This document shows positions 9,357-35,722 of a stretch of DNA of 64,000 nucleotides, piece by piece. Origin of the DNA: a virus. The stretch lies in the IMG/VR virus record IMGVR_UViG_3300034093_003283, one strand, 5' to 3'. A program made the translations under genes and the position numbers. The notes beneath the pieces were generated by a model that did no database searches, was not told the DNA's origin, and saw only the letters and a program-made list of their open reading frames with translations. How positions within the stretch are numbered: position 1 is the stretch's first letter; each line of letters begins with the position of its first letter.

Positions 9357-11435
9357 ATGGCTGCAAATACTGGTTTAAACATAACAGAACTAGATTTTAA
9401 TCAAATAAAAACTAGCCTGAAGAACTTTCTTCAGTCACAAGATACTTTAAAAGATTATAATTATGATGGTTCTGCACTTTCAACACTGTTGGACATTCTA
9501 GCATACAATACACAATATAATGCTTATTACTTGAACATGGTGGCCAATGAAACATTCTTGGACACCGCTTTACAGAGAGCATCTGTTGTTTCACATGCAA
9601 AAACATTGGATTATGTACCAAAATCTTCAATTGCACCAACAGCCACAATCAATTTGAAGGTCAATCAAGTTACTGATACATCATTGACATTACCTAAATT
9701 TACATCATTTTTGTCAGAATCTATCGATGGCATCAGTTATATGTTTGTTACAACCGAAAATACCACAGTTACGGTATTAAATAATACTGCAAACTTTGAT
9801 GGTGTAACATTGAAACAAGGTACACCAGTATCTTTGTCTTTCACCTACGATAGTACAACAAATTCAAAATCCATATTTCAAATACCTGAAATAAATGTGG
9901 ACACAACTACGTTAACAGTTTCGGTGCGTGAGTCATCTTCGAACAATTACTTTAACATCTACAATCACGGGAAAAATTATTTAACACTTTCCGGTTCTTC
10001 TTTGGTTTATTTCTTACAAGAGAATGTAAAAGGTTTTTATGATGTGAGCTTTGGTAATGGCATACTCGGTAAAAAATTAACCAACGGTAATATTGTTACA
10101 CTATCATATGTTGTAACAAATGGCTCGGCCTCTACCGCTGCAAACAATTTTGTGTTGATGGATTCAATCTCAGGTTATTCAAACACAAGAATTTTTCCAC
10201 TAACCTCTGCAACTCAAGGTGGTGATAGAGAATCAATAGAATCAATCAAGTTTCAAGCACCTAAGTCCTATTCTGCACAAGGTCGTGCAGTAACTAAAGA
10301 AGATTACATTACAGCAATCCAACAGAATAACCTTGGTTACTCCTTTGATTCGGTGAATGTTTGGGGTGGTCAAGAGAATGATCCACCGGTATATGGGCAA
10401 GTGTTCATTGCAATGAAACCATCTGGTGCATATATGTTGACAGAAAATCAAAAATCAAAATTGATTAAAGATGTTTTGAGACCTATATCAGTATTGACTG
10501 TGGAACCTACGATTGTTGATCCAGATTACACATATATTCAAATTACTGCAAATGTGTTGTATGATCCTAAGAAAACAAGATTAACTGCAAGTGAAATAAA
10601 AACAAATGTCAAAACTGCAATTAACAATTATGCAAAAACAACATTGAATAGTTTCAATTCGACATTTAGATCATCTGAATTTAATAATCAAATCAATTCA
10701 GTCGATTCTTCTATCATCACAAATGAAATATCAATACAATTACAGAAGAAATTTTATCCAAACCTATCAACACCAACAACATACAAGTTGTATTACGGTG
10801 CACCACTAAAACGTGGTTTATTTTTGAGTGGCATCACTAGTTTACCTTCTGTTGTGTATAGAAACCCATTAAATTTTGCATTATCAGTTGATGGGCTTTA
10901 CATTGAAGAAGTACCATCATCAACAGGTGGTGTGGAATCTATTACAATAACAAATCCTGGTTTTAGTTATCAAGGCCAACCAACAGTCACCATATTAGGT
11001 GATGGAACTGGTGCAACAGTCGAAGCCGTTATGACAAATAATGGTACAATAAAACAAATTAATGTTTTGACAAAAGGAACAGGATACACATCCGCCATAC
11101 TTAAAATTACTCCGGCCGCAGGAGATACTACAGGTTCATCAGGTGCAGGTATAATTACACTTGAAGGTCGTTATGGTATATTAAGATTATACTACAATGA
11201 TACAACAAATGTCAAGACTGTGTTCAAAGGTAATATTGGTATTGTGGATTACAATCTAGGTGTAGTCACACTAAATGCATTCTCACCACTTAATGTAAAT
11301 AATGATTTGGGATTATTAACTGTAACTACTAACCCAACAACAACAATTATTTCATCTACATATAATAGAGTTATCACTGTAGATGAATTTGATCCACAGT
11401 CTATTATTGTTAATGTTACTGCCAAATCAACATGA
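9357..11435 (+). CDS. gp6: Baseplate wedge subunit gp6
   Basis: ELDF..IK..L..FL..Q....DY.Y.GS.LS.LLD.LAYNT.YN.YY.NM..NE.FLDTA..R.SVVS.AK.L.Y.P.S; ESIESIK..AP..Y.AQ.RAVT..DY. Confidence 0.95.
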   Translation: MAANTGLNITELDFNQIKTSLKNFLQSQDTLKDYNYDGSALSTLLDILAYNTQYNAYYLNMVANETFLDTALQRASVVSHAKTLDYVPKSSIAPTATINLKVNQVTDTSLTLPKFTSFLSESIDGISYMFVTTENTTVTVLNNTANFDGVTLKQGTPVSLSFTYDSTTNSKSIFQIPEINVDTTTLTVSVRESSSNNYFNIYNHGKNYLTLSGSSLVYFLQENVKGFYDVSFGNGILGKKLTNGNIVTLSYVVTNGSASTAANNFVLMDSISGYSNTRIFPLTSATQGGDRESIESIKFQAPKSYSAQGRAVTKEDYITAIQQNNLGYSFDSVNVWGGQENDPPVYGQVFIAMKPSGAYMLTENQKSKLIKDVLRPISVLTVEPTIVDPDYTYIQITANVLYDPKKTRLTASEIKTNVKTAINNYAKTTLNSFNSTFRSSEFNNQINSVDSSIITNEISIQLQKKFYPNLSTPTTYKLYYGAPLKRGLFLSGITSLPSVVYRNPLNFALSVDGLYIEEVPSSTGGVESITITNPGFSYQGQPTVTILGDGTGATVEAVMTNNGTIKQINVLTKGTGYTSAILKITPAAGDTTGSSGAGIITLEGRYGILRLYYNDTTNVKTVFKGNIGIVDYNLGVVTLNAFSPLNVNNDLGLLTVTTNPTTTIISSTYNRVITVDEFDPQSIIVNVTAKST

Positions 11436-14400
11436 TAGACAACAATCAAAAAACATCCAATCTGGTTTTATCACAGTTACCCGAGTATGTTCGGGATAAT
11501 CCAGACTATGCCAACTTCAATCTATTCCTAAAGGCTTACTATGAATGGATGGAAACAACTGGTAAAGTAACAGATAGATCAAAAAACCTATTGAATTACA
11601 AAGATGTTGATGCAACAACGGAAGAATTCATAGACTATTTCAACAACGAATTCTTACCTTTCTTTCCTAGAGAATCTTTAGTAAGTCAAGAACAAGCTGT
11701 AAAAGTTGCAAGGCAATTATATCAAAGTAAAGGTACACCAGGATCATATGAATTCCTTTTTCGTGTATTATACAACACCGATGTTGAAATATTTAACACC
11801 AAAGATTCAGTGTTCAAGGCATCTGCCGGAACATGGTATATTTCAAAGAGTTTAAAACTATTATCGGCTAATCCTTATTTCTTACAAACAAAAAACTATA
11901 GAATTTTTGGTGAAGCTTCAAAATCTATTGCAACAATTGAAGCTGCGGTATTAGTTGGAAACAAAACAGAAATATTCATATCAAATATTGAAAGATTATT
12001 TAATTCTGGTGAAACTGTTAGAATTGTTGATTCAAATAATCAAGATGTTTTATTTGGTGGTAATGTTCTTAGTGCAAAAATTGTTGGCCAAATTAGTCAG
12101 ATTAAAATTAATCCAACAAGCCGTGGTTTGACATATCAACCTGGTGACCCCGTTGTTGTTTATGGTGGGTTAAACGCAAACGTTGCAAATCCAATTGGTG
12201 CAACAGCAAAAATTGGTGAGATTACAAAAGGTTCTATACAACGTATCAATGTGGTTAGTGGAGGTTATGGTTATTCTGAGAAACCAAATACTATTATTTT
12301 AATTGAAGATTCAGCTACAAGTGGTGCAAGAGCAAACGTTGCATCTATATCACCATATCTACCACCAACATTTAAAATAGTTAATGCGGGTAAAGGTTAC
12401 AAAATAAATGATACACTTGTATATGAAGAATCTACTTTTGCATATGTTTCCGAGGTTGATATAGAAGGTGCTATACTTAACATCAAGTATAGCACAACAG
12501 TAAATGCACAAGCGATTGTTGGTGTGACAGCATCAGTTTTTTCTTCAAATAATCAAGCTTCAGGTGCAATCATACAAACCGCCACAGCTGTTGGTAATGC
12601 AAGAGCAAACGTAGCTTTCATACCAATGGATGTTATTGGTTTTAAAAAGAATATTCAATTAAGTAATGCAAATTTCTTTTTTGCTAATGCTGCAACGTCT
12701 ACTAAAGATACAACTCTTGCAAATGCGTTCACTTTTGGATCAATAACAACATATCCTATATCTTCCATTTTTGTTGATAATGGTGGTGGTGGAATAACTA
12801 AGATTCCAGAAATAACTGCACTATCCACATATAGAACAGAAGATTCTTTTGATGAATTTGCTGTGAATTCTTCGTTACAATCTCTTGGTATATTAGGACC
12901 AATTCAAATCAGTAACGGTGGTTCTGGTTATCTAGTTAATGATAAAATTGTTTTCACTGGCGGCCGTGGTCGTGGTCCATATGCAAATGTTATAGGTGTA
13001 AATGCAAATGGAGCAATCACATCAATCGATTACTTTATTGATCCACAGTATCGTAAATATCCAAAATATCCATTAGGTGGAACAGGTTATGTTAATGAGT
13101 TTTTACCCGCATTATCGGTAGATTCTGCAAATGCACAAGCATTTGGCGCAAGTTTATTTGTTCCAGGTATTCTTGGCACTGGCGCAACCTTTTCTCCAGT
13201 TGTGGATAGAGCAGGTTCAATAACATCAATTGCAATTGAAAATTATGGTGAGGATTATGAATTCAAACCTAATGTGTCTATACGAATACAAGATATTGTG
13301 GTATCTAATGTTGCAATTGAAAATTTACCTCAAAAGGATGATGTAATATACCAAGGACCAACAATTAATCTTGCATCATATAGTGCAAAAGTTGATTCTG
13401 TTTCTATATTATCTGCGGATGCAAACTCACAACTATCATTATACAGTTTAAGAGTTTACAATTATAACTCTCAACCAAATCCAAAATTACCTTTGGTGAT
13501 TGATGGTAAATACATCAGCCTACCAATGGCCAACTCCACATTCCCACAATTTGTACAAACTTACAATTATTTTGATGCAGTTGGAAATCGAACAGTGTAT
13601 TCCAGAAATTATGACAAGTCTGGTGTTATAAGTTACGGTGATGGATCCGCAAAGGCCAATGCAACATTCTTAAATGGTCTTGTGATTGGTGATGGACAGT
13701 ATTTGACTTCACAAGGGCAACCAAGTTCATACGATGTATTGCAAAGTACTAAGTACAACAATTTCACATATCAAATTACACTTGAAAAAGAAATTTCAAA
13801 GTATAGAGAAGTGTTATTGAACCTATTACACCCAACTGGAACAAATGTAATTGGTCGTTATGCACTAAAATCAAACAACGAAGTTTTCCACCACGCACAA
13901 CAAGGTTTTGAAAGTGGTCAAAAACTATCTTATTATTTGGGTGAACACGTTTCTGATGCACTTAGTATCACCACAAGTTTTACCAATAAGAGTAACAATG
14001 TAATCAAATTTAACAATAAACTTGGTTCCAATCTTGCAGGATTTATTTTTCCTAATGTAAGTACAATTGAAATTAAGAATGATCGTGGTGTTAATATCAA
14101 ATCTTTGGTCATTGGTGTTGATAATACTGCAAATTCAATAACAATTGCAAGTAATGTTTGGTTAACATTTGGTAATGTGGCGGATGTCACTGGCACCTCT
14201 GGTACCAACACACTAAATATTACAGCATTGACTGGTCAATTTGATTATGAAAATGGTGGTGTTTATAGTAACACAAGTTATCCATTAAAAGATATTGTTT
14301 ACACTGGTGATTCTATCAAAGTAAACAATAATATATACACAGTTAAATCTGTGAATTATTCGGAAGATAAAATTGTTTTAACAACCAACTTATCATCCAA

Positions 14401-16385: not shown

Positions 16386-17753
16386 ATGGCAAATAAAAAT
16401 ATACTCACAAACGGTTCAAAGCTTTCTCAGATAGAACTGATGTATTATGCACCGGTGGCCGTGGTACCACCATATCTGACTGAACCTATCAATGTATTCT
16501 ATTGCTTTCTAGCAAAACCATTGCCTTGGGATGATAATATAAACCCACCTGTCCCTGCAACCGATTTGAAATCACTCAAAGCAGTGTATAGGAATATGTT
16601 TATTGTGAAGAAAATAAAAACAAATGATATATCACCAGTCATACAACGTATAGATTGGACTTCAGGAGTAATGTATAATTATTTCCAAGATGATGGTGAT
16701 ATGTTTGAAAAAGATCAAAATGGTTATATAACTTACATATTTTATGTGAAAAACAAATATGACCAAGTTTTCAAATGTTTGTGGAATAATAATGACCAGC
16801 CGTCAACTGTAGAACCATATTTTGAACCAGGCACTTACGCCGCAAACAAAATGTTTCAAGGTGTAGATGGTTATAAATGGAAATTTATGTACACCATTGA
16901 CACCGGGCTTAAACTCAAGTTTATGGACAAAGAATGGATGCCAGTTGCAGTTAGTTCAAACACTCCAAACCCGTTGGTTACAACGGCCGGTGCAGGTAGT
17001 ATAGATGTTATCAATGTGAATGATGGTGGTTCAGGATACGATCCTGGTAACTCCGTGGTGCAAGTGGTCATAACTGGTGATGGAACTGGTGCGGCCGCAA
17101 CCGCCAATGTACAAAACGGAATTATACATGATATTGTTGTTACCAATCCTGGTAGTAATTATAGCTATGCAAGTGCTGTTATTGAGTCTGGTTTTGGTGC
17201 CAATGCTGTACTAACACTTTCAACATCACCTGTTGGTGGCCACAGTTTTGATCCATTTTCTGAATTAGGTTGCGCTCATGTGATGTTAACTTGTGAGTTT
17301 GAGGGCACGGAAAATGGTTTATTGCCTACAGATATTGACTTCCACCAGTTGGGATTGATAATCAATCCAACGACAAGAGAATACAATCCATCATATGCAA
17401 ATGGTGTCGCATACAGTACAACAACAGATATTGTTGTTGCATCAGGTTCAGACATTGGTTTCCAAATGGATGAAATCATTTATCAAGGTGCTTCTAATAA
17501 TCCATCATTTACTGCAACTGTTTTGTATTTTAATCAATCTACCAACCTATTAAAGCTAATAAATACAAAAGGTGTTCCAGTAATTAATAGTCCTATTTTT
17601 GGACAAACATCAAATTCAACAAGAACTGTACTATCATATAATCTTCCAAATTTTGCAATATATTCTGGTCATTTGGCTTATATTGAAAATAGAACTGGTG
17701 TTCAAAGAAGTGATGACGGAATAGAACAACTCAAATTTGTATTAGGTTTCTAA
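16386..17753 (+). CDS. gp8: Baseplate wedge subunit gp8
   Basis: KKI...D...VI.R.DW..G..Y, FYV.N....VFKCL.N, STVEP, DGYKWKFMYTI, P.GGH..DP..EL, SG...YIENR..V.R.....EQ.K.VL.F. Confidence 0.9.
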   Translation: MANKNILTNGSKLSQIELMYYAPVAVVPPYLTEPINVFYCFLAKPLPWDDNINPPVPATDLKSLKAVYRNMFIVKKIKTNDISPVIQRIDWTSGVMYNYFQDDGDMFEKDQNGYITYIFYVKNKYDQVFKCLWNNNDQPSTVEPYFEPGTYAANKMFQGVDGYKWKFMYTIDTGLKLKFMDKEWMPVAVSSNTPNPLVTTAGAGSIDVINVNDGGSGYDPGNSVVQVVITGDGTGAAATANVQNGIIHDIVVTNPGSNYSYASAVIESGFGANAVLTLSTSPVGGHSFDPFSELGCAHVMLTCEFEGTENGLLPTDIDFHQLGLIINPTTREYNPSYANGVAYSTTTDIVVASGSDIGFQMDEIIYQGASNNPSFTATVLYFNQSTNLLKLINTKGVPVINSPIFGQTSNSTRTVLSYNLPNFAIYSGHLAYIENRTGVQRSDDGIEQLKFVLGF

Positions 17754-28820: not shown

Positions 28821-30178
28821 CAACAAAGATTACACCATCAGTTCTAGAAAATACGGCTGTTACAGCAGCCACACATGGTACTGCTGCTGCAATACCAGTT
28901 ATAGTTGTTGATCCACAAGGTAGAATTACTGGTGTCACCAACACTTCTATTAGTATAGGCACAAGTCAAATTGGTAGTGGCACACTGGATGATGCAAGAT
29001 TGCCTGCTCAGGCGGGTTTGACTGCTGCAAACTATTATGGTGGTGCAACCAAGACTGTTGCAATTGTTACTGATGCAAAAGGTAGAATTAAATCAGCAGC
29101 CAACGTTACAATTGCAATTGCTTCTAGTGCAGTTTCTGGTTTAGCAACCTCGGCAACCACGGATACTACGAATGCTGATAACATCGGTTCAGGCACATTA
29201 GCTACAGCAAGATTGGCAGACTCTGGTGTCGTTGCAAGAACATATGGTACCGCTTCAAGTGTAAGTCAAGTTGTTGTTGATGCAAAAGGTAGAATTACTG
29301 GTATTTCAAACGTTGCAATACAAATTGCAACTTCTCAAATCACAAGTTGGCCAACATTTGTAGCCTCAGCAACCACAGATACTACGAATGCGGGTAATAT
29401 CGGTTCAGGTACTTTACTTGCAGCAAGACTTCCAACTTCTGGTGTGTCAGCAGGAACATATGGGTCATCATCAGCAGTTCCTGCAATATCAGTAGATTCT
29501 ACAGGTAGAATTACATCCGCAACATCAACTGCCATTTCAATTAGTTCTGGTGCAGTTACTGGATTAGCAGGTGTTGCAACATCTGGAAGATATGATGCAT
29601 TGTTAGCAGGTTCGGGGCAACCAACCATACCAACCACATTACCAGCTTCTGATGTGTATGCTTGGGCAAAAGCAGCAACAAAGCCAACATATGCATATTC
29701 AGAAATAACTAGTCCACCTACAATACCAACCACGTTACCAGCTTCTGATGTATACGCATGGGCCAAGGCTGCAACAAAGCCATCATATGCATATTCAGAA
29801 ATATCTAGTCCACCTACAAATGTAAGTTCATTTAGTAACGACTCAGGGTTTTTAACTGCTTCCAGTTTTCTAAAATCTTTAAATGCTAATGGTTACATAA
29901 AGTTACCAGGAAATATAGTAATAGTATGGGGTTCGACAACTGCTTCAATAGGAGGTTCAACCGGCGGAACTGTGACTGCATCTTATGCAGCAGGCAATGG
30001 CATGTCAACACTTTATCAAGTTCTTTATAACATCTATCCGTCTACCACTGATGGTGGTGCTTATTTTGTGGAAAGATTAACTGCAAAAAGTGCAAGTTCA
30101 CTTTCAGTACTTATTCGGTCAAGTAATGGCCTCACATTCACTTATGTGTTGAACTATATTGCTATTGGAACTTACTAA
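28817..30178 (+). CDS. Tail fibre protein with VD.KGRIT repeats and a GYIKLPG..I.WG C-terminal tip domain
   Basis: Four repeats of the (SGTL..ARL)..G..A.TYG....V..I.VD..GRIT unit, a duplicated ASDVYAWAKAATKP.YAYSEI unit, and a fibre-tip motif NGYIKLPGNIVIVWG. Confidence 0.75.
   Translation: MTTKITPSVLENTAVTAATHGTAAAIPVIVVDPQGRITGVTNTSISIGTSQIGSGTLDDARLPAQAGLTAANYYGGATKTVAIVTDAKGRIKSAANVTIAIASSAVSGLATSATTDTTNADNIGSGTLATARLADSGVVARTYGTASSVSQVVVDAKGRITGISNVAIQIATSQITSWPTFVASATTDTTNAGNIGSGTLLAARLPTSGVSAGTYGSSSAVPAISVDSTGRITSATSTAISISSGAVTGLAGVATSGRYDALLAGSGQPTIPTTLPASDVYAWAKAATKPTYAYSEITSPPTIPTTLPASDVYAWAKAATKPSYAYSEISSPPTNVSSFSNDSGFLTASSFLKSLNANGYIKLPGNIVIVWGSTTASIGGSTGGTVTASYAAGNGMSTLYQVLYNIYPSTTDGGAYFVERLTAKSASSLSVLIRSSNGLTFTYVLNYIAIGTY
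29627..29818 (+). repeat. 93-bp tandem duplication (PTTLPASDVYAWAKAATKP.YAYSEI.SPPT)
   Basis: Two adjacent near-identical copies in DNA and protein. Confidence 0.9.
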
Positions 30179-30262
30179 ATTTCGAATTTTTGCGTTCCGG
30201 CCCGAGAATTTTCTCCGACAGCTCCAAAAGTCCAAAAAGCGAATTTACTTTCAGTATAAATA
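30177..30262 (+). repeat. Conserved non-coding element, copy 2, ending in consensus late promoter TATAAATA
   Basis: Gapless match to 8871-8948. TATAAATA at 30255-30262. Confidence 0.85.
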
Positions 30263-30282
30263 CCTCTAAAAGGGGTTAAATA

Positions 30283-30624
30283 ATGCCAGCTGGTTACCAA
30301 GAATTATTTCTAGAACAAGGTTCAAACTTTAGTACATCCATTTCTTTGGACCAGGCTGATGGTTCACCTTTTGTTTTGACTGGTAGCCAAGTAAAAGCTG
30401 CCATGAAAAAATCATATTATTCTAGTAATACAACCGCAAATTTTGTAGTAACAGTAAATGATCCAACAGAAGGTGTTATACTTTTAACTTTACCTTATGC
30501 AAATACGGCAAATATTTTAGCCGGCCGTTATGTGTATGATGTACTTATCAAAGATTCTTCAAACACAGTGATACGTGTTTTAGAAGGAGTTGTGAACGTT
30601 TTACCTCAAGTTACAGTATTTTAA
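30283..30624 (+). CDS. Small Ig-like virion/fibre-attachment protein
   Basis: L.LEQG..F...I......GSP..LTG....A.M.KSY, G.I.L.L....TA....GRYVYDV.I......V.RV.EG.V.V.P.VT. First gene after a late promoter. Confidence 0.6.
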   Translation: MPAGYQELFLEQGSNFSTSISLDQADGSPFVLTGSQVKAAMKKSYYSSNTTANFVVTVNDPTEGVILLTLPYANTANILAGRYVYDVLIKDSSNTVIRVLEGVVNVLPQVTVF

Positions 30625-30633
30625 AGGAATAAA

Positions 30634-31167
30634 ATGGCGACCGTAACTGTTACACAACCAGCAACCATAAAAGTTAGAGTTGAAGGTCAGAAAACTAAAG
30701 TACAGACGTTATCCTATGGTACCAAAACACTTAGGAGTTTAACTGACCTTAGTTTAGTTGGTGCAAACACGGGTGATGTGATTGTATACAACTCACAAAC
30801 CAAAACATTTTCTGCAAAAGGCCTTGGTACCGATACTCCTGTACATGGAAATCTATTACCAACAACTTCAAGAACATTCGACCTGGGTAGTAGAACACAA
30901 AAATTCCGAAGTCTTTATCTAAGTGGTAATACAATTGACTTGGATGGTACAGTTATTAAAGCTGATGAAGTTTCTGGTGCAATATCTTTTGCTGCACGTC
31001 CAACTGAAACACAACCAAATCCAATCGCTATTGTTGTATCTCCAATTGGTGGTTTTGTGCCTGTTCAAACTGTTGCTGGTGTAATTCCAGAAGCAGCAAT
31101 TCAGGCCGCAATAGCAAACTCAATAACGTATTTGGCTTTCCAAGGTGCTGATTCCGGTTTCTTTTAA
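30634..31167 (+). CDS. Fibre-associated protein, ends in ADSGFF
   Basis: L..LTD.......TGD.IVYN, GNLLP..S.TFDLGS...KFR.LYLSG.TI fibre motifs. RBS AAGGA. Confidence 0.6.
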   Translation: MATVTVTQPATIKVRVEGQKTKVQTLSYGTKTLRSLTDLSLVGANTGDVIVYNSQTKTFSAKGLGTDTPVHGNLLPTTSRTFDLGSRTQKFRSLYLSGNTIDLDGTVIKADEVSGAISFAARPTETQPNPIAIVVSPIGGFVPVQTVAGVIPEAAIQAAIANSITYLAFQGADSGFF

Positions 31168-31380
31168 ATGGCAAATACATCAATACAAATTCTCCGTTCA
31201 TATGCGAACACAGCACCTTCATCATTAGCAGACGGGGAACTTGCATATTCTTTTCTTTCCAACACACTTTTTATTGGAAATACCACTAATCATGTAATAC
31301 CGATAGCCGGTTTGAATTATATTGAATCCGTTCCAGGACCAGTTACCGAAAATTCCACTTTTGACGGTGGCACGTTTTAA
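31168..31380 (+). CDS. 70-aa protein: Mtd N-terminal-like domain plus C-terminal DGGTF
   Basis: IQILRS....APSSL.DGELAYS.....LFIG resembles the trimeric Mtd/hyaluronidase N-terminal domain. Confidence 0.7.
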   Translation: MANTSIQILRSYANTAPSSLADGELAYSFLSNTLFIGNTTNHVIPIAGLNYIESVPGPVTENSTFDGGTF

Positions 31381-31386
31381 TAAATA
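31379..31386 (+). promoter_or_regulatory. T4-type late promoter (AATAAATA)
   Basis: At the gene junction upstream of 31429. Confidence 0.6.
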
Positions 31387-31428
31387 GATCATAGGATTTA
31401 AATCCAATTAACAACAAGGATAATAATA

Positions 31429-33345
31429 ATGGCAAATACAGCACTAAGAATTAGACGTTCTCTTACCACAGGCATGCCGGGCAGTTTGGTAGCTGGTGAA
31501 ATAGCGTACTCATATCAATCCAATACCATGTTTATTGGCTCACCTGCTGGCACAGGTGTACTCAATATTGGTGGGCAATATTACACCTCAACTATAGATA
31601 GTGCAACCAGTTCAAATACTGGAGGCACACTTGTCCAACGTAGTGCAACTGGTAATATCTTTGTTGGCCACGCAAACGTTAGAAGTATTAGCTTCTCTGA
31701 CGGTGGTGTGTTAAGCACAACTTCATTCTCGGGTAATGCAAACTCTGCAACTCAATTCCAGACCAACAGATTTATTGATATTACTGGTGGTGATATTACT
31801 GCTTCTGCACAATTGTATGATGGTACTGCAAATGCAACATTAAGTGCAGCATTAAATACAGTTGCTGGTCTTTCTGCGGGTACATACGGTGGTTCAACAG
31901 TCATACCTATCATTCAAGTAGCTGCAAACGGTCGTGTTATGGTCATTGCCAATTCGGCAACAATCTCTACATCATTGAGTGTTGCTGCTGACTCTGGTAC
32001 AACTGACGTAGTTAATTTAGCAACTGACACATTTACAATTGCTGGTGGTGCAGGCCTTACATCAACTGTAACAAACAATCAAGTAACTATTGATGTTGAC
32101 ACTACAGTCATTCGTGCAAATACACCAAGTATGAGACAAACCATTGATGGTGACCTTATCATCAGTGGTAACGTATCCATTTTAGGTAACTCTACAGTAT
32201 ACAACGTTGAAACACTTAGTGTTGAAGACTCATTGATTGCACTTGGTAAAAACAACACATCAGATGCAGTTGATATTGGTTTCTACGGTCACTACAATAA
32301 TGGTGCAGACCGTCATGCAGGTTTGATGCGTAATGCTGGTGATGGTTTCTTCTATTTGTTTGACAACTATAACATAGAACCAACAGGTAACGTCATCAAC
32401 GTTGCAGATGCAAGCTTCCGTCAAGCAAACTTGAAATCTAATTTAATTGCAGCATATGCCAATACAACTCAAGCAAACGTTGGAAATCTATTTGTTGCCG
32501 GCACCGCACAAATTAAATCATTAACTTTAACTGATGATTTAACAGTACCTAACGGTGGTACTGGCGCAAGTACATTCACTATTGGTTCTATCCTTGTTGG
32601 TGATGGCACAGATTCATTAAAAGAACTTTCTAACACAACATTTACTGCAACTGGTAGTGGTGCTCAAAATAACACCATCACTTCTGTAACTGTTGATTCA
32701 TATGGTAGAACAACTGCTGCAACATTCCAAGCAATTAATGGTCTAACAGTTGGCCAAGGCGGTACAGGTAAATCTACTTTTGCTTCAGGTAAAGTTGTTA
32801 TTGGTAACGGTACAGGCGCTCTAGTAGAACTTGCAAACGTTACTTACACACTTACCGGTTCATTAAGTGCAGCTAAAACAATCACATCGTTGACTGTAGA
32901 TGATTATGGTCGTGTAAGTGCTGCAACAGCAGCAGACATTTCTGGTCTAACCGTTACACAAGGCGGTACCGGTGCATCCACATTAAGTGCTGGTGGTTTG
33001 TTAATTGGTAATGGAACAGGTGCAATTTCTACACTTGCAAATACCACCTACACACTAACCGGTTCATTAGGTGCTGCAAAAACAATTACATCATTGACTG
33101 TTGATGCATACGGCCGTGTAAGTGCTGCAACTGCGGCTGATATTGCAGGTCTGACTGTTGCACAAGGCGGTACTGGCGCTTCTACATTCACTTCAAAAGG
33201 TATCGTTTACGGTGACGGCACAAATGCACTAGCAGTTACCTCTGCTGCAGGCACATCGGATCAAACATGGTCTAATCAGATTCTTACAACCACAGATGCA
33301 GGTGTACCAGTTTGGTCATCCTCAATAGATGGAGGACAATTCTAA
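31429..33345 (+). CDS. Fibre protein: Mtd N-terminal-like domain, repeat shaft, C-terminal DGGQF
   Basis: LRIRRS.....P.SL.AGE.AYS, VEDSLI.L....D.GFYG.Y module, and tandem L.V.QGGTG.ST...ITS.TVD.YGR repeats (about 32540-33240). Confidence 0.75.
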   Translation: MANTALRIRRSLTTGMPGSLVAGEIAYSYQSNTMFIGSPAGTGVLNIGGQYYTSTIDSATSSNTGGTLVQRSATGNIFVGHANVRSISFSDGGVLSTTSFSGNANSATQFQTNRFIDITGGDITASAQLYDGTANATLSAALNTVAGLSAGTYGGSTVIPIIQVAANGRVMVIANSATISTSLSVAADSGTTDVVNLATDTFTIAGGAGLTSTVTNNQVTIDVDTTVIRANTPSMRQTIDGDLIISGNVSILGNSTVYNVETLSVEDSLIALGKNNTSDAVDIGFYGHYNNGADRHAGLMRNAGDGFFYLFDNYNIEPTGNVINVADASFRQANLKSNLIAAYANTTQANVGNLFVAGTAQIKSLTLTDDLTVPNGGTGASTFTIGSILVGDGTDSLKELSNTTFTATGSGAQNNTITSVTVDSYGRTTAATFQAINGLTVGQGGTGKSTFASGKVVIGNGTGALVELANVTYTLTGSLSAAKTITSLTVDDYGRVSAATAADISGLTVTQGGTGASTLSAGGLLIGNGTGAISTLANTTYTLTGSLGAAKTITSLTVDAYGRVSAATAADIAGLTVAQGGTGASTFTSKGIVYGDGTNALAVTSAAGTSDQTWSNQILTTTDAGVPVWSSSIDGGQF

Positions 33346-33393
33346 AGGCTGACTATATAATGTAATAGATTTTTTTTATGATAGGAGTTTGAA

Positions 33394-34149
33394 ATGGCAA
33401 ATGAGAAGTATTTAAATTATTATATTGAGACAATGACAAGCACATTAACAGATTGTGTGGTTCGAAATATCTCAATGCAAGCAAATGCAAAAATAACTGA
33501 TGAGGTTGTTAAAGAACAGACTGAGAAAATTGATAATTTAAAGTTGATGAATAGTGAACTACAATCTATGATTGTGGAACTAAAAGATACCAATGCATCA
33601 AGTGAAAGCACAGCTGTTCTAGAACTGAAAAATACATTGTTAGAAAGTGAAAAACTTGTAACAAAATTAAGCAACGATGTTGGTGAATTAGGTACCAAAC
33701 ATCGTGCCGAAATTGATGAATTGACAAGTAAGTTTCGTGATTATGATAGTGTTAAGAATCAAGCTGGTCATGTGGAAACATTTAAAGGTGAATTGATTAA
33801 AGCAAGAGAAGAGGTTAGTCGGGTTCGTTCAGAACTTGAAAACAAAATCAATTCTCTTACATCTGAAAATACTGGAAAAATTAATGCAATGAATGAACAG
33901 AATGAAAAAACTGTTGCATCATTATTGAAACAAAATGAAGATACTGTTAACAATTTGATTCAGAAACATGAAACTGAAAAGAGTGAATACAACAATAAGA
34001 TAGACGATCTACTTGCTAAAATTGATTACTTACAACTACCTCCTTCCAAAAGAAAAAAAATTGATGAGCTGAATAAAGAAGTGGAACCAACAACTTTAAC
34101 AAGTTTAATTGGTACCAATGGCCCAATCAAAGATGGTGGAACGTTTTAA
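33394..34149 (+). CDS. Long charged coiled-coil protein ending in DGGTF
   Basis: E/K/L/N-rich heptads over about 200 aa. RBS AGGAG. Confidence 0.7.
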   Translation: MANEKYLNYYIETMTSTLTDCVVRNISMQANAKITDEVVKEQTEKIDNLKLMNSELQSMIVELKDTNASSESTAVLELKNTLLESEKLVTKLSNDVGELGTKHRAEIDELTSKFRDYDSVKNQAGHVETFKGELIKAREEVSRVRSELENKINSLTSENTGKINAMNEQNEKTVASLLKQNEDTVNNLIQKHETEKSEYNNKIDDLLAKIDYLQLPPSKRKKIDELNKEVEPTTLTSLIGTNGPIKDGGTF

Positions 34150-34153
34150 GTAA

Positions 34154-34633
34154 ATGTCAAACACAGCAATACAGTTAAAAAAATCAGGCGCAACGGGAAA
34201 CACACCATCAGGACTATCCTATGGTGAGTTAGCACTCAACTACGCCGATGGTAAACTGTATTATAAAAATGGTTCTGGTGGTACTTCTTACATAAGTAAC
34301 CAATTCTCTTTCGATACAATCAATGCCAATAGTTCTTTAATATTGGCCACAAGTGGTTCGGACACACTGTCTTTTATTGCTGGTAATAATATAACCATCA
34401 GTACAAATACAACCACAAAAACAATCACAATCAATGCATCAGTGTCTGGAGGAAGTGATCCTGGTCCTGCGTTTGACAGGGCCAATGCAGCATATGCATC
34501 ACAAAACATCACAGCGGTGTTTGCTAATGCAGCTTTCATTCATGCCAATGCTGCCTTTGATAAGGCCAACACAGGCACGACCGCACTTGATGTAAATGCC
34601 GACATTGTTGCTTTCACTATCGCATTTAGTTGA
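34154..34633 (+). CDS. Short fibre connector: Mtd N-terminal-like domain, AN heptads, hydrophobic C-terminal peptide AFTIAFS
   Basis: IQLKKS......P..L.YGELA.NYADGKLYYK, then A..SDTL.F.AG.NITI, then ANAAF repeats. Confidence 0.7.
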   Translation: MSNTAIQLKKSGATGNTPSGLSYGELALNYADGKLYYKNGSGGTSYISNQFSFDTINANSSLILATSGSDTLSFIAGNNITISTNTTTKTITINASVSGGSDPGPAFDRANAAYASQNITAVFANAAFIHANAAFDKANTGTTALDVNADIVAFTIAFS

Positions 34634-34636
34634 TAA

Positions 34637-34644
34637 AATAAATA
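34637..34644 (+). promoter_or_regulatory. T4-type late promoter (AATAAATA)
   Basis: Intergenic, upstream of adaptor 34663. Confidence 0.6.
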
Positions 34645-34662
34645 GAAGATAAGGAAATTTAA

Positions 34663-34989
34663 ATGGCAAATACTTTTAAAAATCAACTACAAGCAGCAGT
34701 CGGAACTTCACCTACAACCATATACACTGCTGGCGCAGGCGTATCTACCACAGTTATTGGTATGACTATTGCAAATATATTGAACACATCAATAACTGCA
34801 AATGTTATAGTAACTTCTAGTGCATCAGATTATTATATGGTTAAGATGGCTACAATTGATCCAGGTAATTCTTTAATCACCATTGGTGGTGAACAAAAAT
34901 TAGTATTGGAAGCCGGTGATATACTTAAAGTTTCAACAAGTAATGCTTCAGCAGCAGACGTTATTGTAAGTTTATTAGAAATAACGTAA
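34663..34989 (+). CDS. Small beta-sandwich adaptor, type 1 (MANTFKN)
   Basis: T.IYT.......TVIGM.IAN, I.PG.SL......K.VLE.GD.L.V, DV.VS.LEI. Similar to 41155 and 44152. Confidence 0.65.
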   Translation: MANTFKNQLQAAVGTSPTTIYTAGAGVSTTVIGMTIANILNTSITANVIVTSSASDYYMVKMATIDPGNSLITIGGEQKLVLEAGDILKVSTSNASAADVIVSLLEIT

Positions 34990-34990
34990 T

Positions 34991-35722
34991 ATGCAATTCA
35001 CTTACATTGGCAATCAAGGAAGTAAGGATGTAAGGTTAGCCAGTTCATTTGCCAATGGTGCATTTGTAACTGCTAACTCAGCAGCCTCTTTCGCCAATGG
35101 TGCTTTTGGTGCAGCCAATTCGGGTGCTAGTTTCGCTAATGCGGCTTTTGCTCATGCTAATGCAGCCTTTGCTGCAGCAAATACTGGAGGTGGTGGAGGA
35201 GCATTAACAGGATATGTTGATGTGTTTACTGGTGACGGTTCAACGTCAGCTTTCACATTATCAACCACACCAACAAGTGCTAATATAACTTTTGTTGCTG
35301 TACAGGGTGTCTTGCAACCTAAAGCTTCATATAGTTTAACTGGGAACTTATTAACTTTTGATTCAAATCCACCGAGCACATCATATATTGAAGTAACCAC
35401 ATTGACTGGTGCTGGTGGTGCTGGTTCATCAATCACATGGTATATTGCAAATGCAAACACTACAATGACTGTCAGTTCTGGTTACTTTGTAAATACTATG
35501 GGTGGTCCATTAACAATGACTTTACCCGTAAGTGCAACTTTAGGAGACACTATCAGACTCAATGATTTGGCCGGAACATTTAGTGCAAATAATTTAACCA
35601 TTAATAGAAATTCACACAAAATACAAGGCAATACAAACGATTTAATAGTTAACGTAGACCAAAGTAGTTTTGGTTTAGTATACAGTAATAGCACATATGG
35701 TTGGAAAGTATTGGAGTTATAA
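34991..35722 (+). CDS. Fibre connector: YIGN N-terminus, AN heptads, GDGST beta domain, gp9/gp10/gp34-like C-terminal attachment domain
   Basis: C-terminal GYFVNT.GG..T.TLP.SA..GD.I...D..GTF..NNLTI.RN..KI.G...DL......FGLVY.....GW. Confidence 0.65.
   Translation: MQFTYIGNQGSKDVRLASSFANGAFVTANSAASFANGAFGAANSGASFANAAFAHANAAFAAANTGGGGGALTGYVDVFTGDGSTSAFTLSTTPTSANITFVAVQGVLQPKASYSLTGNLLTFDSNPPSTSYIEVTTLTGAGGAGSSITWYIANANTTMTVSSGYFVNTMGGPLTMTLPVSATLGDTIRLNDLAGTFSANNLTINRNSHKIQGNTNDLIVNVDQSSFGLVYSNSTYGWKVLEL

Follow-up and report, generated by a model that had tools for sequence, protein, structure and literature searches.

A candidate segmented tail fibre built on a repeated C-terminal peptide and N-terminal cap joint in an uncultured T4-like myophage

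The 64,000 nucleotides of the IMG/VR virus record IMGVR_UViG_3300034093_003283 analysed here, called the window in what follows, carry on the plus strand a gene module in which a short C-terminal motif (the plug) and an N-terminal domain (the socket) recur from one protein to the next. The module is opened by a gene encoding an LtfC-like small beta-sandwich protein of 113 amino acids with PHROG matches (30283..30624) and continues with the genes of proteins labelled A, S, F, C and T. Protein A (30634..31167, 177 amino acids) bears only a plug, DSGFF at 31150-31164, and is proposed as the first fibre segment. Protein S (31168..31380, 70 amino acids), a putative minimal adaptor, consists of a socket (31168-31338), a short linker and a DGGTF plug (31363-31377). 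Protein F (31429..33345, 638 amino acids), presumably the main fibre shaft, has a socket (31429-31599) and a DGGQF plug (33328-33342). Protein C (33394..34149, 251 amino acids) is a coiled-coil protein with a KDGGTF plug (34132-34146) and without a socket, and protein T (34154..34633, 159 amino acids) has a socket (34154-34324) and no plug. The region is most likely the tail-fibre part of an uncultured T4-like (Kyanoviridae-related) myophage.

An initial annotation of this DNA had pointed out four related C-termini and three related N-termini in this module and proposed that the former dock into the latter. Both sets of ends are confirmed by the list of open reading frames (ORFs): the endings ADSGFF (30634), FDGGTF (31168), IDGGQF (31429) and KDGGTF (33394) belong to consecutive genes, and the beginnings are MANTSIQILRS (31168), MANTALRIRRS (31429) and MSNTAIQLKKS (34154). 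When all ORFs of at least 40 amino acids on both strands of the window are scanned, exactly four end in D[GS]G.F. A hidden Markov model (HMM) of the socket run over the six frames matches exactly three genes, with E values from 1e-25 to 1e-29 and the next best hit at 0.4, and spans residues 1-58 in all three; ORF ends and HMM matches thus agree that 31168 and 31429 each carry both elements. In an alignment of 46 socket N-termini covering the three classes, N3, T4, S11, P18, G24 and E25 are invariant and I6, L21 and A27 nearly so. The resulting consensus, NT.I..(K/R)(K/R)S..P..L..GE.A, contains the P..L..GE.A signature noted earlier. This pattern is strongly non-random and far beyond chance. 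The plug-bearing A, S and F have no Pfam match at E <= 0.1, their PHROG matches are unannotated families, and a Pfam scan of nine module proteins gave nothing useful for the plug or socket proteins.

Searching viral contigs with F retrieved 78 related loci at 38-92% identity, in which both motifs and the gene order are kept down to approximately 40% identity. Over the 79 loci counted here, the module order is LtfC-like, A, (S), F, C, T throughout, with the architecture ASFCT in 41 loci and S kept in 54, where it retains 23 invariant positions. The C-terminal motif occurs in 279 module genes and in 0/562 other genes, and nearly all of these 279 genes directly precede a socket gene or a coil gene. 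Each class has its own consensus: D[SAMG]G.F in A, DGG.F in S (DAGNFS in one subclade), always [LIM]DGG[QTS]F in F, and KDGG[ST]F in C; T, which ranges from 134 to 1759 amino acids, has no plug. Such shared ends might be no more than a legacy of duplication among fibre genes of common ancestry, or a generic trimer-capping sequence, and play no role in docking. The three sockets are indeed paralogues, and S is by this account clearly a shortened duplicate of F. However, A and C share only the last five residues with S and F, the motif stays invariant where the adjoining sequence varies freely, and the same pairing recurs in unrelated phages; we regard descent without docking as the least probable of the explanations weighed here, close to negligible.

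The plug varies with the gene that follows it. Proteins of class A end in D[SAM]G[FEMY]F when an S gene comes next and in D[GA]G[small]F when an F gene comes next. At non-redundant junctions, plugs preceding S-class sockets have the form D[ASM]G[F/E/M/Y]F; 0/28 of them carry Gly as second residue, and 19/28 end in FF. Plugs preceding F-class sockets are mostly DGG[small]F, with Gly in 28/32 when carried by S and in 10/14 when carried by A; the latter come from the loci lacking S, and none of them ends in FF. These S-less loci form one deep clade on the tree of F proteins. A single locus within it, L057, does carry S, and its A plug reads DAGYF as opposed to the DGG[A/G/T]F of its neighbours, which provides a second independent contrast for the covariation of plug and socket. 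That the plug variant tracks the socket class of the next gene points to specific and ordered joints rather than those of an open-ended polymer.

This distinction matters for the extendable filament that had been envisaged, in which 31168 and 31429 would each chain head to tail into a homopolymer, with 30634 as its start and 34154 as its cap. Each of the two has a socket as well as a plug, and in F the latter, [LIM]DGG[QTS]F, is similar to what stands before F-class sockets (DGG[TS..]F). The S plug, DGG.F, is nevertheless of the type that precedes F-class sockets and differs from the D[ASM]G[F..]F type found before its own S-class socket. Moreover, the order A-S-F-C-T is fixed in 41 loci, a whole clade lacks S and yet retains the other module genes, there is no sign of a length-control element, and the T4 precedent described below is a defined, ordered hetero-oligomer. 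Self-chaining into a filament is therefore not supported; F-on-F docking would be compatible with the sequences, but nothing points to it, and we consider the homopolymer very improbable.

The S gene of L057 deserves separate mention. It encodes an 88-amino-acid variant (L057, 6001-6264) in which an F-like segment (GGQYYT..IDS.TS.NT.ST.V.RD..G), matching F residues approximately 48-75, lies between socket and plug. Owing to this segment S looks like a truncated duplicate of F, which suggests that S arose by a truncating duplication of F.

The socket had been labelled Mtd-N-like, after the N-terminal domain of the Mtd protein. None of the three window socket proteins matches Pfam Mtd_N (PF18454) or any other Pfam family at E <= 0.1; 5 of 46 members of the socket family match Mtd_N weakly (best E 0.0023), compared with 7/7 of the classical Mtd_N N-termini taken from related loci as a control (best E 1.7e-15). 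A profile alignment (hhalign) of the sockets with this bona fide Mtd_N set is in register and not significant (probability 4%, E 0.01). The same comparison with residues 1-60 of T4 gp37 yields a probability of 97%, an E value of 7.8e-11 and 40% identity over 42 columns, covering gp37 residues 6-50, and the N-terminus of T is the window socket closest to gp37. At the level of fold, AlphaFold2 (AF2) models F residues 1-120 as a monomer with one helix and four short strands, at a predicted local distance difference test (pLDDT) value of 69.5, and Foldseek found no significant match for this model. VIA-align places Mtd (1yu0) at rank 6 of 48,161 chains with a weak Z of 3.2 (42 residues aligned at a root-mean-square deviation of 2.9 A, pairing 6-48 of the model with 5-48 of Mtd) and HylP (6x3m) at Z 2.8, the best matches of any kind lying around Z 4 and all below Z 5. 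A search of the Protein Data Bank (PDB) with the socket profile produced spurious repeat matches to designed 'Cake' beta-propellers, at about 2 bits per domain, which were rejected. Since the match to gp37 is strong and the comparison with Mtd_N not significant, the sequences place the socket in the T4 gp37 N-terminal family, at most as a distant relative of Mtd_N. The earlier label has weak backing, and 'T4 gp37-N-like', with Mtd_N as a possible distant relative, is the better name. The domain is common: at E <= 1e-3 its profile matches 8,810 cluster representatives, and among the 150 of these matches that were listed the socket is N-terminal in 150/150 and a strict plug ending is present in 43/150.

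The relationship to gp37 leads directly to the partner of that protein. In the T4 record, gp36 ends in ..VQDFGYY and the next gene, 37, starts with MATLKQIQFKRS..RP..L.EGELAIN. Trimeric gp36 attaches to the N-terminal region of gp37 as the initial step in building the distal half-fibre (PMC3004832). Homologues of gp36 in other phages end in DFGYY (PspYZU05 of Pseudomonas), DYGSF (Kimel of Acinetobacter), DFGVV (VP8 of Cronobacter), DFGTY (Mineola of Klebsiella) and DFGSY (phiKp_19 of Klebsiella), in each case with the socket gene directly next; four of these five phages are Straboviridae, and Cronobacter VP8 is assigned to the genus Muldoonvirus with no family in its record.

The order of peptide and then domain recurs in 12 isolate phages, T4 included, spanning myo-, sipho- and podoviruses. 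Colwellia siphophage 9A encodes a 162-amino-acid protein ending in ..MDGGVF followed by a socket gene. In Vibrio podophage 1.293.O, a pair of proteins with a plug alone (..DGGDY and ..DGGSF) is succeeded by a socket-plus-plug protein (..DGGSF) and then by a socket-bearing tailspike. Prochlorococcus phage P-HM2 possesses a whole module, consisting of an LtfC-like protein, a 74-amino-acid protein ending in ..NGGSF, a 562-amino-acid socket protein ending in ..DGGTF, a coil of 69 amino acids and a large socket protein. Limnohabitans phage DC31 has the module without the coil, and contig ctpbd312 shows the same order of plug and socket. In P-HM2 (L082, 3995 onward), the gene PHM2_094, annotated as 'gp7 baseplate wedge subunit', opens with a gp37-N-type socket (MATRIKLKRS..P..L.DGEVALN) after the plug-bearing module, and its product is probably, to judge from this start, a fibre protein and not gp7.

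A second flavour of joint was also observed, in which proteins ending in D[YMFL]G[TYS][LIV](S/T/A) are followed by genes with a Pfam Mtd_N start (..QFRRGNTAQ..); it is found at L044 (8785-9276), L058 (8579-9607), L051, L042 and L046 and in Pelagibacter phage HTVC008M (L080, 9847-11736). Some T-class proteins have a socket of the first kind at one end and a plug of the second kind at the other.

The docking itself was modelled as a complex of three copies of F(1-120) with three copies of S, from alignments made for this analysis, the trimeric N-terminal domain being thus confronted with a partner ending in DGGTF, a check suggested in the initial annotation. The median ipSAE (interaction prediction score from aligned errors) is 0.71 (runs of 0.73, 0.70 and 0.71), compared with 0.00 for the best of three controls; the mark by which this score is judged is reached by 58/80 solved complexes and 2/110 mismatched pairs, counts that hold only roughly for this type of job. 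The pLDDT of the partners is at least 82, and at least 90% of the contacts are common to the runs. In the model, the last nine residues of S, 62-70 (NSTFDGGTF), lie against F residues 2-12, 14, 17-18, 21 and 26, which are the conserved, in part invariant, socket positions, and the terminal Phe contacts residues 9-11, 14, 17, 18 and 26. A PDB search returned no chain matching T4 gp36, gp37 residues 1-100 or the socket profile, so that the model is unlikely to owe its pass to recall of a solved structure; likewise, no atomic structure of the T4 gp36-gp37 joint was found among the PDB chains searched. Docking of the plug into the socket of the next protein is therefore supported by prediction. 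This model with its clean controls, the conserved succession of genes, the covariation and the relationship of the socket to gp37-N (the partner of a gp36 ending in DFGYY) together favour the docking of D[GS]GxF into the following N-terminal domain that had been postulated.

One could instead take D[GS]GxF as a common tag for a single partner, either a chaperone or a baseplate or collar site, with the four proteins forming parallel appendages and no chain. Four plugs against three sockets would suit this arrangement, as would a socket-less coil protein whose plug hangs from a flexible tether, and phage fibres often need dedicated chaperones (PMC3004832). A common tag would not explain, however, that the plug subtype tracks the socket class of the next gene, that plugs and sockets co-occur at gene junctions of unrelated phages, that the model puts the plug on conserved socket residues with controls at zero, and that the plug-bearing gp36 of T4 binds the socket-bearing gp37. 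We judge a common tag improbable, if a little less so than the homopolymer.

We therefore favour, with good confidence, a segmented lateral or tail fibre whose trimers are joined by a repeated plug-socket joint comparable to that between the C-terminus of gp36 and the N-terminus of gp37. Separately made trimeric proteins would join end to end through this one joint, used repeatedly. The plug, a hydrophobic-D-[G/A/S]-G-x-F-COOH terminus, would lie as an extra strand alongside the first beta-strand of the small trimeric cap with which the next protein begins, and its terminal Phe would sit in a pocket formed by the invariant K/R-S, Pro and Ala positions. The predicted order runs from the LtfC-like anchor (30283) to A (30634), S (31168), F (31429) and T (34154) and from there to the fibre parts further downstream. 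A match between plug variant and socket class would ensure ordered assembly and prevent open-ended polymerization, and C would carry a plug on a flexible tether as an accessory to the same docking site. The motifs, how well they are kept, the order of the genes, the covariation and the relationship to gp37-N are observed in the sequences, whereas docking is a prediction of the model and both the anchoring by the LtfC-like protein and the placement of C are inferences.

Several observations weigh against this proposal. The window holds one plug more than sockets (4 versus 3), so that at least one plug must have another target or share a socket, although the socket count covers the 64-kb window and further sockets may exist elsewhere in the genome. 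A similar excess is seen in Vibrio phage 1.293.O (L081, 2318-6049), whose plug-only paralogues of 147 and 175 amino acids bring the number of plugs to three for two sockets. Phages S-CAM7 and DSL-LC02 have a socket gene without an adjacent plug gene, and S-CBS2 has a degenerate plug. The covariation rests on few independent lineages, the S-less loci being essentially one clade, and the role assigned below to the LtfC-like protein has analogy as its basis. The surplus of one plug in both 1.293.O and the window hints at alternative or branched attachment.

The initial annotation had left this surplus without comment; the extra plug bearer is the coiled-coil protein 33394. C starts with a conserved stretch of 40 amino acids, continues as a coiled coil whose length varies, and then has the motif IDYLQLPPSKRKKIDE and a variable tether before the terminal KDGGTF. 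Across relatives the family motif reads I(E/D)YLQL.P.KRKK.DE, followed by the variable tether and KDGG[ST]F. Compared with the PDB, C shows generic coiled-coil similarity only, and compared with the Atlas it matches unnamed viral clusters.

The position of C invites an in-line reading, in which the F plug would enter the N-terminal domain of C and the C plug the socket of T, yielding a linear A-S-F-C-T fibre. The gene order F-C-T is conserved, the plug of C is encoded directly upstream of the T gene with a gap of 4 nucleotides, and the highly conserved 40 residues at its N-terminus could be an acceptor of another kind. According to the socket HMM, however, this N-terminus is not a socket homologue. 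The plug of C stands on a variable, probably flexible tether and is preceded by Lys in 47/54 sequences, at a position that is mostly hydrophobic in A, S and F. The coil of P-HM2, 69 amino acids long, has a degenerate end (..DGPDDF), and a coil homologue at L071 (7674-8186) ends in ..STKDIFKK. The latter is the sole plug-less coil among the loci examined, and a search for a frameshift restoring its plug found none. Finally, the coil-less phages DC31, Vibrio 1.293.O and T4 join F-like proteins directly to T-like sockets. For this last reason, and in view of the features of the C plug, of L071 and of P-HM2, F to T is ranked as the conserved joint; an in-line C is unlikely, though it keeps more weight than any of the other alternatives. 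C is instead most likely, as far as sequence comparison can tell, an accessory on the same docking site, acting as a second stalk that displays T, as a brace or as an assembly cap.

Protein 34154 had been cast as the terminator of the filament. That it is the last socket of the series is reasonable. In the window, T ends in ..FTIAFS and a 108-amino-acid protein comes next. T-class ends are mostly hydrophobic, with ..FTIAFS in 33/63 and others such as ..FSIALG and ..SIVFGF, and a protein of approximately 108 amino acids follows; this looks like a different kind of junction. At L007 (5564-8560) a T-class socket is fused to a 998-amino-acid protein ending in ..AIAMSIVFGF, and at L003 (8943-9563 plus 9921-12455) that ending is on a separate downstream fibre protein of 844 amino acids, a comparison which shows that closely related loci have shuffled or fused fibre segments.

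At the other end of the module, the product of 30283-30624 matches phrog_1084 at an E value of 8e-22 and, at 1.2e-16, phrog_3304 ('L-shaped tail fiber protein assembly'), and scores 18 bits with Pfam LtfC, where the cut-off is 27 (E 0.0045). An LtfC-like gene precedes the module in nearly all related loci as well as in P-HM2, HTVC008M and Limnohabitans DC31. In phages DT57C and T5, LtfC forms a collar ring in which the lateral fibre protein is held at its N-terminal strands, through beta-sheet augmentation (PMC10713586). The N-terminus of A is strand-rich and conserved. By analogy, the LtfC-like protein is likely a collar or anchor holding the N-terminus of A, and A may be taken as the segment fixed to the virion. 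Because A directly follows this anchor gene, the initiator role that had been given to 30634 is a reasonable one.

Upstream of the module in the window lie baseplate wedge genes: one resembling gp6 at 9357 (phrog_219), one resembling gp7 at 11432 and one of phrog_438 at 16386. The closest isolates of the gp6-like protein are Pelagibacter phage HTVC008M (42% amino acid identity), Mosig, Methylophilales phage Melnitz and S-PM2. At the junction of A and S (31162-31170), A ends with TTT TAA and the ATG of S (31168) is the very next codon, in frame. The same zero-gap arrangement is found in several related loci; in others the genes overlap by 1 nucleotide or stand 8 nucleotides apart, and readthrough of the stop codon from A into S was set aside because of these differences in spacing. 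The arrangement looks like translational coupling. A promoter and terminator scan of 30100-35100 was indistinguishable from that of shuffled sequence.

The type of joint is known from T4 gp36-gp37. What is new here is its repeated use, an adaptor of as little as 70 amino acids, a plug tethered to a coiled coil and the peptide rule with its subtype specificity. A literature search for the motif strings DGGSF, DGGTF, DGGQF and DFGYY found no phage paper, and one on gp36/gp37, head-to-tail fibres and Mtd_N found no description of a peptide-into-cap joint or of a C-terminal peptide as joining element. Nowhere in this comparison is the joint so stripped down and so often repeated as at this locus, which offers a residue-level model open to test with peptides and small domains. 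Should the docking rule prove valid, the assembly order of multi-gene fibre clusters would become readable in many uncultured phages, given the 8,810 socket representatives, annotation would improve (as for the 'gp7' of P-HM2), and natural connectors would be available for modular fibres of laboratory phages. More broadly, and with a confidence that falls somewhat short of even, we propose that the peptide (hydrophobic-D-x-G-x-aromatic-COOH) and the gp37-N/Mtd_N-type cap may constitute a widespread, sequence-readable docking code whose subtypes, namely DGGxF, D[ASM]GFF, D[FY]Gx[YF] and K-DGG[ST]F, set the joining partners. If this were true, fibre connectivity, branching and accessory tethers could be predicted from sequence and re-wired in laboratory phages, and the 70-amino-acid socket-plus-plug protein would represent a minimal natural adaptor.

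Among known systems, T4 offers the closest comparison. Its gp36-gp37 joint has been known for decades from the order of assembly. As would be the case in the window, the joint in the distal half of the T4 long tail fibre connects a pair of parallel trimers within a single fibre (PMC3004832; PMC5537660), and gp36 has a D-x-G-x-aromatic-COOH end with its gene directly upstream of the socket gene 37. T4, however, uses the joint once, and the window 3 or 4 times in a row. Neither a 70-amino-acid protein that is little more than socket and plug nor a coiled-coil protein with a tethered plug has its like in T4. The plug is DGGxF in the window and D[FY]Gx[YF] in the T4 family; the window plug proteins are not gp36 homologues (no Pfam match), their likeness to gp36 being confined to the last five residues, and no gene resembling the gp35 kneecap is seen in the window module, unlike T4.

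A second comparison is offered by the N-terminal domain of Mtd of Bordetella phage BPP-1 (Mtd_N, PF18454) and by that of streptococcal phage HylP, small N-terminal trimeric caps like the one predicted for the window socket. The Mtd_N pattern, a strand with ..Q.RRG/S and then ..GE.., resembles that of the window socket, and bona fide Mtd_N genes, as seen in related loci and in HTVC008M, are also preceded by genes whose products have plug-like C-termini of the form D[YMFL]G... The window sockets differ in lying below the Pfam threshold, in their non-significant profile comparison and in fold matches below Z 5.

The third is phage T5/DT57C, whose branched LtfA-LtfB fibre, like the fibre proposed for the window, is made of several proteins (PMC10713586); the window module opens with an LtfC-like gene. 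The two differ in polarity and setting: in DT57C the N-terminus of LtfA enters a dodecameric LtfC ring on the tail tip of a siphovirus, whereas in the window a C-terminal peptide would enter an N-terminal trimer. In both, a fibre protein would donate beta-strands to its partner, as described for DT57C (PMC10713586) and as predicted by the model of the plug on its socket.

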